From an uncultured Gammaproteobacteria bacterium (GTDB lineage Bacteria; Pseudomonadota; Gammaproteobacteria; JAURND01): a DNA stretch of 64,000 nt. Position numbers and translations under genes: made by a program. How positions within the stretch are numbered: position 1 is the first letter of the stretch; every line of letters starts with the position of its first letter. Positions 44,160-45,992 of this stretch are shown here, in pieces. Location: the NCBI GenBank assembly GCA_963813895.1, contig CAWFAS010000001.1, positions 473,290 through 537,289 of the forward strand, in the 5' to 3' direction. The notes below the pieces were generated by a model. That model was not told where the DNA came from. It saw only the letters and a list, made by a program, of their open reading frames with translations, and did no database searches.

Positions 44160-45992
44160 TTACCAGGCAAAACCAAACGTCGCTCTGACCACATCCCAAG
44201 TGGTGATGATATTTACGGCTAGAATACCAGCCACAATATGGACGATACTCTTGGTGAGAGTACCCTGATGTGATTGGCTACCCATTTTGGACAACAGTAT
44301 CCAACCGCGTACAAAGGCAATTAGGCCCACCAGCTTGACGATATCTATAACCGCATCTTTCAAGTGGTCGTAGGTCATTCCCGCTACGTCACTATCAGAA
44401 TAGGAGAATAGGGATGAGTCACCGCCCATAAAAAATATGGTCCCATTAGACACTTGCAGGGTTGATGGCAGATAAATCAGTGCCGTTCCGGTAATAACAT
44501 AGGCCAAGGCGCTGATCATGCTAGTATGAGATGTGGAGGAGGAGCTCTTGCTTTCACCGATTTGCTTAAACTTTGATATACCTATCATACAAAACACCAC
44601 ACCAATCGTGTAACACAGCGCGAATACTAAGCGAATTAGCGCTGGAATTTGCGTGCGCAGTGAGTCTAAGAATTTGTCGGCATCAAATGAACTAAAACCC
44701 TCACTCCCCCAATCAACAGGAGTTGCATTGTTTGATCGGCCGGAAGCAATAGCCTCGTCTATTTTATCGCGAAATTCACTGTAGCAGGCATTCTGGTCAT
44801 AGCAGGTACCATAGCCAGGCATAGTGGTTTTGCCCAATAGCCAGTTCATATATTGTTCCGTAGTCCAACCCAAAGTTAGTCTATGTTTTTCAAAATCATT
44901 CCAGCTGCCAGTATAGGTCGAAAGATACTTTAATAGGTTGTAGAGGTCAGTAGGCGTATATAAATTAGGATCCAGGCCCATGCGTCTGGCTATATCAGCC
45001 CAGTCAACTTCTTCGCTGTTATTGATGGCATTATTTACTTCATCCCATAAATCTCCATAGTTTTTTAACTCATTGTTCAGGTTATTATATTGATTGATCA
45101 AAGCCTCTTTTTGAGCCTGCAAATCAGTTAGAAATTGCGCGGCGCTTTTGCCAGAATTCAGTGCCCCCTGTAAAGCAGCATCGAAATCATTGGGATCGTT
45201 GCCCATGGCGACCCATTCATCCTTAAGTTGTTGCAGTAAAGATTGAGGAGTGCCGCCATTGTTGAGCAGGGTTGAAAATTCCTGTGGGGTCAACCCAAGG
45301 TCACTAGCGCCTCGCGCGGCGTCTGGGAAAGTGGTTGGATCATTTCCGGCATCAACCCACGCTTTTTTCATGGCGTCAAAATCTGCAGCAGGATTAAAGG
45401 TGGGTGAGGTGACTGATGATTTAAATTTAGAAACGGGTATGCCCAATGTTCCGGCAGCGGCAACTGCTGCTGCAAAAGCATTTGGATCTTTTCCGGCCGC
45501 TATCCAGGCTGCTCGCATATCAGCGGTCTGTTCCGGGGTATAGGAAAAAGTTTTTTGTTGATCAACAGGGTTCCAAGCTCCTTTACCCGCAGTCGCAGCA
45601 TTTATAAACTCAGTGGGGCTGTACCCCATTTTGGTAGCAGCATTGACGGCGGCAATAAAATCCTCGGGCCGAGCTCCTGAAGCTTCCCAGGCCGTTTTCA
45701 TGGCACTAACTTGTGCAGCCGGATCAAATGTACCTCCTTGAGAATTTGCGGCAGCATCAAAATCTGAAGGAGAACCACCGAGTACTGACCAGGCTTCGAT
45801 CGCGGCCGTGAACGCATTGGGATCTCTTCCGGATTTTATCCAAGCTGCTTTCATATATTCAGCCGCCTCAGTAGTATACGCCTGATTGGTGTAATTATAG
45901 TCCGCAGCTACGGCCGTAGACATAAAAAAAGCGGATAAGATAAGAAAGCCGGTAGCGAATATTTTTCTGTGAATGTGCATATATAGTCTCAC
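44160..45992 (-). CDS. Secreted tandem-repeat protein with a C-terminal four-helix membrane domain; unknown function
   Basis: 610 aa. N-terminal signal peptide (FATGFLILSAFFMSTAVAA). Five tandem ~41-aa repeats fit the pattern AW..xG.DPN.F.AA.......LG.....F (aa about 45-300). A central Asn/Leu-rich linker follows. The C-terminal ~170 aa carry four hydrophobic helices. I recognise no characterised family. Confidence 0.8.
   Translation of the reverse strand: MRLYMHIHRKIFATGFLILSAFFMSTAVAADYNYTNQAYTTEAAEYMKAAWIKSGRDPNAFTAAIEAWSVLGGSPSDFDAAANSQGGTFDPAAQVSAMKTAWEASGARPEDFIAAVNAATKMGYSPTEFINAATAGKGAWNPVDQQKTFSYTPEQTADMRAAWIAAGKDPNAFAAAVAAAGTLGIPVSKFKSSVTSPTFNPAADFDAMKKAWVDAGNDPTTFPDAARGASDLGLTPQEFSTLLNNGGTPQSLLQQLKDEWVAMGNDPNDFDAALQGALNSGKSAAQFLTDLQAQKEALINQYNNLNNELKNYGDLWDEVNNAINNSEEVDWADIARRMGLDPNLYTPTDLYNLLKYLSTYTGSWNDFEKHRLTLGWTTEQYMNWLLGKTTMPGYGTCYDQNACYSEFRDKIDEAIASGRSNNATPVDWGSEGFSSFDADKFLDSLRTQIPALIRLVFALCYTIGVVFCMIGISKFKQIGESKSSSSTSHTSMISALAYVITGTALIYLPSTLQVSNGTIFFMGGDSSLFSYSDSDVAGMTYDHLKDAVIDIVKLVGLIAFVRGWILLSKMGSQSHQGTLTKSIVHIVAGILAVNIITTWDVVRATFGFAW

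Follow-up and report, generated by a model that had tools for sequence, protein, structure and literature searches.

A stand-alone IcmC/DotE-family gene with a predicted periplasmic repeat arm in an uncultured gammaproteobacterium

The gene analyzed here lies in a 64,000-nt stretch of contig CAWFAS010000001.1 (positions 473,290 to 537,289 of the forward strand; assembly GCA_963813895.1) from an uncultured gammaproteobacterium of the lineage JAURND01, hereafter called the window. It is located between an aldehyde dehydrogenase gene and nadK, and its product consists, from N- to C-terminus, of a signal peptide, five diverged repeats (here termed AW repeats), a long Asn-rich helix and four C-terminal transmembrane (TM) helices (coordinates in Table 1). 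An original prediction, made from the letters of the window, had described the open reading frame (ORF) as encoding a secreted-type repeat protein with a membrane C-terminus, and all of these parts were indeed found in the 610-residue product. A database protein (P0001) is identical to this product and begins at ATG 45980 (606 aa), and a separate contig (L001) matches window positions 44066-49424 with 100% identity. Translation from GTG 45992 yields a product beginning MRLY, resembling the N-terminus of the relative P0025 (MRLYHKLF). The choice between the two starts leaves the conclusions unaffected.

IcmC/DotE, the homolog of TraQ of IncI plasmids, is a four-helix inner-membrane component of Dot/Icm type IVB secretion; the relationship between TraQ and DotE/IcmC has been noted in the literature (PMC6112013). 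By sequence, the C-terminal part of the window protein is a complete IcmC/DotE/TraQ-family domain of type IVB secretion systems (T4BSSs). The original prediction had correctly anticipated a C-terminal four-helix membrane domain, with four helices predicted at residues 447-602 and a layout that agrees with the ~170-180-aa, four-TM domain of the family. Two of its statements have to be revised, namely that the protein could not be placed in any characterized family and that the membrane part was an "anchor": the closest full-length relatives are encoded in dot/icm clusters, and the membrane domain is the conserved, family-defining part, the repeats being a lineage-specific add-on. No Pfam model covers the C-terminal domain. 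The only curated hidden Markov model (HMM) to match was NCBIfam TraQ_IncI1 (NF033883), which aligned to residues 452-608 over profile positions 17-174 of 175 (E = 1.5e-8, 34.7 bits), a score well under the 80-bit equivalog cut-off and therefore indicative of a family-level relative rather than of TraQ. Bona fide IcmC proteins, including that encoded in the cluster of Legionella sp. D16C41, scored 14.5-41 bits on this model, on a par with the window protein or below it. When the last 174 residues were compared with ~185-aa proteins named IcmC by JGI, E-values ranged from 6.6e-26 to 1e-18 at 30-38% identity and 96-99% coverage, and the alignment with IcmC proteins ran end to end, including the signature KLVGLIAFVRGWxxLSKxG. 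The Legionella sp. D16C41 protein just mentioned is 35% identical to the window domain (E = 1e-28). All family signatures are kept—a Gly in TM1, (Y/F)(L/F)PS after TM2, LVGLIAFVRGW..LSK.G in TM3 and H..GG..A.N in TM4—and every invariant or near-invariant column of the three family alignments (A1, A2 and A3) is present in the window protein.

An exhaustive phmmer search against 1.84 billion representative sequences returned 850 relatives; the best 150 were inspected, and among these all match via the C-terminal domain. In a genome scan covering 80 loci, the homolog was nearly always encoded in the order icmE-icmG-[icmC]-icmD-icmJ-icmB. Proteins longer than 270 aa accounted for only 13 of the 169 family sequences fetched (275-576 aa), and they share with the window protein the C-terminal tail TTWE..RATFGY.W. 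In uncultured Gammaproteobacteria, such long forms (P0025, P0027, P0031 and the proteins of loci L003 and L004) hold the canonical icmG-icmC-icmD slot, lying between icmG/dotF and icmD/dotP-icmJ-icmB, a placement not found for the window gene. P0025 (437 aa; metagenome-assembled genome (MAG) 5N005, JASGJS01) is flanked by genes with the Pfam domains DotM_C, TraG-D_C, OmpA, DotI/IcmL, DotH/IcmK and TrbI, is 38% identical to residues 295-606 of the window protein (E = 3e-66) and carries a single AW-type repeat. P0027 fits the context of L003, and the L004 protein measures 290 aa. P0031, on a JGI contig (L093:8001-10231, JGI 3300009120), belongs to a T4BSS cluster with two tandem long icmC genes followed by two IcmD-like (DUF6750) genes; as these tandem copies indicate, duplication of long IcmC is recurrent. 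As a side observation, the IcmC profile also picks up, through its first half, IcmD/DotP-like proteins (Pfam DUF6750).

The window gene belongs to a second group, found outside the clusters. In a neighbor-joining tree of the membrane domain (no bootstrap), the window protein, P0023 and P0026 grouped with P0022 and P0024 in a clade sister to the in-cluster long forms. Four of these five are confirmed as stand-alone, P0026 being encoded on a 2.4-kb contig too short to give gene context. P0023 (412 aa, no AW repeats; 44% identity to the window protein over 361 aa) occurs in two sister genomes (GCA_964386165.1 and GCA_035546635.1) in nearly the same neighborhood, with nadK, recN and bamE on one side and hslUV-SPOR-DUF945-argS-M20 on the other; housekeeping proteins of these genomes are 74-94% identical to those of the window. 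In both genomes a further member, P0022 (545 aa), is encoded beside smpB and a gene for arginine decarboxylase. Three AW repeats are clear in it; a repeat HMM whose training set included these reports four domains. P0024 (576 aa), in which the middle module is duplicated and AW repeats are lacking, likewise adjoins smpB, on contig L088 of run ERR11718638. Since another contig of that run is 100% identical to the window, the window's organism very probably has two stand-alone paralogs, one at the nadK locus and one at the smpB locus. Which gene carries the AW array thus differs between genomes: the one at nadK in one genome, the one at smpB in the other. What is conserved and ancestral in the "long IcmC" clade is the middle module together with the membrane domain; the AW repeats are a lineage-specific addition, evolve fast and vary among orthologs as well as among paralogs. 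The searched literature contained no account of long IcmC forms, of the middle module or of the AW repeat.

We consider it likely that the window gene is a stand-alone, N-terminally extended IcmC/DotE paralog encoding a Dot/Icm inner-membrane subunit that projects a modular helical arm into the periplasm. The word paralog matters here, as the gene might instead be the principal IcmC/DotE of its lineage, having left the dot/icm cluster and then been duplicated, with the machine depending on it. In the sister clade a long form is the sole IcmC at the canonical position (L002/L089, L003 and L004), the stand-alone copies keep every conserved family residue together with the same middle module, and look-ups of the same sample and of the sister genomes turned up no short IcmC. 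Yet an in-cluster copy may exist elsewhere in the genome, given that 64 kb of it were examined; the two stand-alone paralogs per genome and the tandem long copies in L093 indicate a clade that readily keeps extra genes; and Legionella has DotE plus a stand-alone DotV (PMC6761968). On balance, we regard a relocated principal IcmC as conceivable, if doubtful, and retain the assignment as a stand-alone paralog.

The N-terminus of the window protein (MRLYMHIHRKIFATGFLILSAFFMSTAVA, followed by ADY) has, as judged by eye, the form of a Sec-type signal peptide, with a basic n-region, a hydrophobic core and an AVA-A site at which it would be cleaved. The same type of start was seen in 13/13 long relatives. 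Together with a Cys pair (C397/C403) present in most long relatives, it supports the earlier proposal that the N-terminal part is exported. Canonical IcmC has an acidic N-terminal flank devoid of basic residues and a basic first loop, so that its N-terminus is predicted to be periplasmic; a large domain added at this end would need a signal peptide, as the long forms have. For the window protein, too, an N-terminus-out topology is the predicted one, and the Cys pair, a likely disulfide, fits an oxidizing compartment. Among shorter family members, many of ~200 aa (P0036-P0070) have an extra hydrophobic, signal-like N-terminal segment that ~180-aa members do not, and thus at least two short architectures exist in the IcmC family. 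Separately, IcmC homologs were noticed within long ORFs (about 330-670 aa when counted from the first start codon) at L074:8540-10504 (Micavibrio), L080:8471-10477 (Pseudobdellovibrionaceae) and L058-L079 (mostly Alphaproteobacteria, plus Bdellovibrionales-type MAGs), which suggests that N-terminal extensions of IcmC may have arisen independently in alphaproteobacterial and Bdellovibrio-like lineages.

A signal-like segment in many ~200-aa members is also what might be expected of a pilin-like, VirB2-class subunit that is extracted from the membrane after signal-peptide cleavage and polymerized or displayed, leaving the arm exposed at the surface or to the host. TraQ and TraR of IncI/IncM plasmids have been placed in the VirB2 family, TraQ being related to DotE (PMC6112013), Legionella DotV is under positive selection, which has been read as contact with host or effectors (PMC6761968), and the arm varies quickly between orthologs. 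Four TM helices and a 420-aa domain are nevertheless unlike any known conjugative pilin, and surface exposure cannot be read from sequence; we judge a pilin-like subunit very improbable. A membrane-resident Dot/Icm subunit with a periplasmic arm remains our preferred interpretation.

The arm itself was modeled with AlphaFold2 (AF2), using a 68-sequence alignment for the full-length protein and a separate run for the periplasmic part. Mean predicted local distance difference test (pLDDT) values were 83 for the full model and 81 for the periplasmic part alone (predicted template modeling score 0.64). The model is all-helical: each AW repeat forms three short helices, followed by a helix of ~40 residues, a compact helical module with the Cys397/Cys403 hairpin, a low-confidence linker and a long helix leading into TM1. 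What had been described as an "Asn-rich linker" is Asn-rich (28% in residues 295-330), as stated, and is predicted to be one long helix, residues 284-324 (model residues 280-320 in 606-aa numbering). The periplasmic part is acidic (isoelectric point 4.3), with 15% Ala overall and 20% in the repeats. Estimated from helix lengths rather than measured on the model, the reach of the arm with its five modules and long helix stretched out would be very roughly 15-20 nm. The middle region (residues ~295-445 of the window protein) is common to most long forms and comprises the coiled helix and the motifs DW..IA..MG..P...PD.I..RL and G.S..EYM.WLLG; the middle module proper is predicted with a pLDDT of about 90, and the Cys pair is present in 9/12 long forms. 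Of 11 periplasmic regions from long forms, five gave a faint match to Pfam Myb_DNA-bind_8 (best E = 0.002) through DW..IA..MG...I..RL (residues ~331-360). A Myb/SANT-like domain was rejected, these matches being sub-threshold, absent from the window protein itself and probably convergent.

The repeats are recognizable by the motif [AE]W..xG.[DR]P, found at residues 50, 101, 162, 211 and 259, with the consensus [AE]W..xG.[DR]P...F....A......LG.sP.eF over the unit. Their 45-aa cores align without gaps at 27-44% pairwise identity, are spaced 48-61 aa apart and are separated by short linkers, three of which contain an aromatic-(N/D)-P motif. Of the predicted "five tandem ~41-residue repeats", the number therefore stands, the unit being 45 aa at a spacing of 48-61 aa. 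For a leave-one-out test, each repeat was scored with an HMM made from the other four, 2000 composition-matched shuffles serving as control. Scores of 31.8-48.5 bits, against a shuffle maximum of 8.7 bits, establish the repeats as real and far beyond chance. No tandem repeat was found in this region at the DNA level; the duplications are therefore old and detectable in the protein sequence only. As the original prediction had proposed, the repeats are modeled as small helical units (pLDDT about 80-95), and the conserved Gly-x-Asp-Pro and Gly-x-Ser/Thr-Pro-x-Glu/Asp-Phe motifs map to turns between helices. In the PDB, the repeat profile matched only de novo designed toroid repeats, which share an LG-x-S-x-EE helix-cap motif. 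The conserved residues (caps and core Trp/Phe/Leu/Met) thus look structural rather than ligand-binding. A suspected sixth repeat at residues 331-390 was rejected on a repeat HMM score of -1 bit, and hhalign gave a 5% probability for the pairing of AW repeat and middle module, i.e. no detectable homology. Neither profile nor fold comparison of the repeat with PG_binding_1, LysM, SPOR, Sel1/TPR and OmpA-like domains gave a significant match, and the whole protein searched against the PDB by sequence yielded noise only, such as retroviral capsids. With the repeat HMM, no further matches were found in the remainder of the window or among the loci and proteins that had been fetched, and two metagenome scans, one for the repeat array and one for the stand-alone clade, found no relatives. 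No known homologs of the AW repeats were found in this analysis, and three proteins among about 1.8 billion representatives were seen to bear them. Both the AW repeat and the middle module, which is conserved, are candidates for new domain families.

For the window protein we infer association with a T4BSS in this organism, the topology described above and a role as strut or docking element. In the mechanism that we propose, the signal peptide would carry the N-terminus across the inner membrane and the IcmC domain would insert with its own N-terminus on the periplasmic side, filling the site of IcmC-family subunits in, or next to, the inner-membrane complex of the T4BSS. Acidic and all-helical, the extension of ~420 residues would then project into the periplasm as an arm made of five 45-residue three-helix AW modules, the ~40-residue Asn-rich helix and the conserved helical module with the Cys pair. 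Facing the cell wall or those parts of the machine that lie in the periplasm, it might work as a strut, a spacer or a surface for docking. Several points weigh against this proposal. No other T4BSS gene was found among the ORFs of the window when these were compared with T4BSS cluster genes, and the flanking genes are housekeeping genes, so that co-option for another envelope function is conceivable. For IcmC/DotE itself, no molecular function is known (PMC8896642; bioRxiv 10.1101/312009), and "works like IcmC" therefore denotes a placement, not a mechanism. No member of the IcmC family has a solved structure, and the IcmC-domain profile had no match in the PDB. Finally, the conserved repeat residues fit a scaffold and offer no clue to a ligand.

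A rival reading is an IcmC-derived envelope protein decoupled from the T4BSS, its four-helix domain serving as an inner-membrane anchor only and its arm having a periplasmic role of its own, such as envelope spacing or scaffolding of the cell wall or of division. Besides the lack of T4BSS genes in the window, the housekeeping neighborhood partly kept in the sister genome (nadK, recN, bamE and hslUV-SPOR-DUF945-argS) and the fast evolution of the protein relative to its neighbors (44% against 74-94% identity) would agree with such a role. However, it is the membrane domain and not the arm that is best conserved, the invariant residues of the family are kept, which a mere anchor would not need, and the closest relatives beyond the stand-alone clade are in-cluster T4BSS genes. 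We therefore think decoupling decidedly unlikely and favor a T4BSS-associated subunit. A bolder extension of the latter, which we rate as unlikely, is that long IcmC proteins may reveal the role of the IcmC/DotE/DotV subunits, each of which would be the membrane foot of an arm directed into the periplasm or toward the surface. In this lineage, paralogs that gain, lose and exchange AW repeats would diversify the arms and so tune the reach or the partners of the T4BSS. In its strongest version, the arm may be pilus-like or host-exposed, and the AW repeat would define a new family of domains with a specific role in binding.

IcmC/DotE, IcmD/DotP and DotV are required or conserved Dot/Icm components that are absent from all solved T4BSS structures (PMC8896642; bioRxiv 10.1101/312009). 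If export of the N-terminal part were confirmed, the topology of the family would be fixed as N-terminus out, with the subunit facing periplasmic partners, and the arm, as a large soluble domain, would offer a natural handle for localization, pull-downs and difference mapping by cryo-electron tomography. The pattern within the clade—escape from the cluster, duplication and rapid remodeling of a repeat array—is unusual for a core gene of a secretion system. The window protein departs from the known IcmC/DotE/TraQ family in size, exported domain and genomic location and is not categorically new. Its interest lies mainly with secretion-system specialists, to whom it offers topology information and a handle on an uncharacterized subunit family; practical significance is limited, as the lineage is uncultured and rare.

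Table 1 Features of the ORF and of its flanking intergenic regions (window coordinates; strand in parentheses).
Feature	Residues	Position	Remarks
Whole ORF	1-610	44160..45992 (-)	610 aa from GTG 45992 or 606 aa from ATG 45980; stop codon 44160-44162
Sec-type signal peptide (predicted)	1-29	45906..45992 (-)	n-region with R/H/R/K; h-region IFATGFLILSAFFM; AVA-A site
AW repeat 1	41-85	45738..45872 (-)	three-helix module; 48.5 bits when left out
AW repeat 2	92-136	45585..45719 (-)	40.4 bits when left out
AW repeat 3	153-197	45402..45536 (-)	43.7 bits when left out
AW repeat 4	202-246	45255..45389 (-)	38.3 bits when left out
AW repeat 5	250-294	45111..45245 (-)	31.8 bits when left out
Asn/Glu-rich segment	295-330	45003..45110 (-)	part of long helix; onset of region common to long IcmC relatives
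Conserved periplasmic middle module	331-420	44733..45002 (-)	DW..IA..MG..P...D..; G.T.EQYM.WLLG; Cys397/Cys403 beta-hairpin
IcmC/DotE/TraQ-family membrane domain	434-610	44163..44693 (-)	
TM1	447-476	44565-44654 (-)	hydrophobic helix
TM2	490-510	44463-44525 (-)	hydrophobic helix
TM3	546-570	44283-44357 (-)	hydrophobic helix
TM4	577-602	44187-44264 (-)	hydrophobic helix
Palindromic intergenic element (family B)		44059..44157	~99 nt; convergent gap between aldehyde dehydrogenase gene and ORF
Divergent intergenic region shared with nadK		45993..46344	352 nt; 34% GC vs 44.6% in the window

The genes surrounding the ORF encode an S1/P1 nuclease, the aldehyde dehydrogenase, NadK, RecN, BamE, GlmS, an arginase-family protein (PF00491; possibly SpeB), HslUV, a SPOR-domain protein, a DUF945 protein and ArgS. 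Both flanks of the ORF had been characterized correctly in the original prediction, which named a family B element at the 3' end and a long AT-rich divergent region at the 5' end. The former is a near-perfect palindrome that, as an RNA hairpin, folds with -82.5 kcal/mol (z = -13.6) and recurs at three other sites, as full copies at 26192-26263 and 41317-41387 and as a half copy at 51393-51414. All copies are intergenic; chance alone would be expected to give none in 64 kb, as against the three full copies and the half copy present. The family looks like repetitive extragenic palindromic (REP) sequences or miniature inverted-repeat transposable elements (MITEs), and the copy next to the ORF may act as a terminator or mRNA-end hairpin. 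Rfam returned only spurious hairpin matches for the palindrome and no known RNA family. The divergent region presumably contains a promoter; consensus scans for promoters and for terminators did not rise above shuffles, and no promoter was mapped. Another dispersed repeat family is represented by a short sequence at the end of the P0024 contig (L088:3401-3437), probably the point at which the assembly broke; it occurs twice in the window in inverted orientation (57064-57093 and 57323-57358), between the DUF945 gene and argS. Elsewhere in the window, a low-GC island (11228-16720; 31-39% GC vs 45%) contains two eukaryote-like, effector-type genes, one for an ankyrin-repeat protein of 1335 aa and one for a Sel1-repeat protein of 383 aa. 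Ankyrin- and Sel1-repeat genes are typical of Dot/Icm-using bacteria, and the island is consistent with a host-associated, effector-secreting lifestyle.

Among known systems, IcmC/DotE of Legionella, Coxiella and uncultured relatives corresponds to the C-terminal ~175 residues end to end, with the same four TM helices and conserved motifs. IcmC/DotE is, however, a small protein lying almost wholly in the membrane (PMC8896642; bioRxiv 10.1101/312009), whereas the window protein has 610 rather than ~180-195 residues, carries a cleavable-type signal peptide and a ~420-aa extension predicted to be periplasmic and helical, and is encoded apart from any dot/icm gene. TraQ of IncI1/IncM plasmids shares the near full-length NF033883 match; in contrast to the window protein, it is plasmid-borne and has no N-terminal extension. 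The location of the window gene recalls Legionella DotV, a stand-alone inner-membrane Dot protein that is listed with DotE and DotP and that we compared by description only. Like the window gene, dotV lies outside the main dot/icm regions, with lpp0537 (dotV; also lpg0472) and lpp0519 (icmC) at separate locations, and it diverges faster than the core machinery (PMC6761968). From Legionella, the genome scan described above retrieved in-cluster icmC only. Unlike the window protein, DotV is short (an alignment of 543 nt; PMC6761968), and it has been reported absent from Coxiella, Rickettsiella and Berkiella (PMC12184199, PMC11338181, PMC9803151). Because the neighbor-joining tree puts the window protein beside in-cluster long IcmC, its origin appears to be independent of DotV, suggesting a separate duplication within the long-IcmC clade. 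The in-cluster long IcmC proteins, which are unannotated, share with the window protein the signal peptide, the coiled helix, the middle module, the IcmC domain and the C-terminal tail; they differ in being encoded inside a T4BSS cluster and in having no AW repeat or a single one (P0025), as against five in the window protein.

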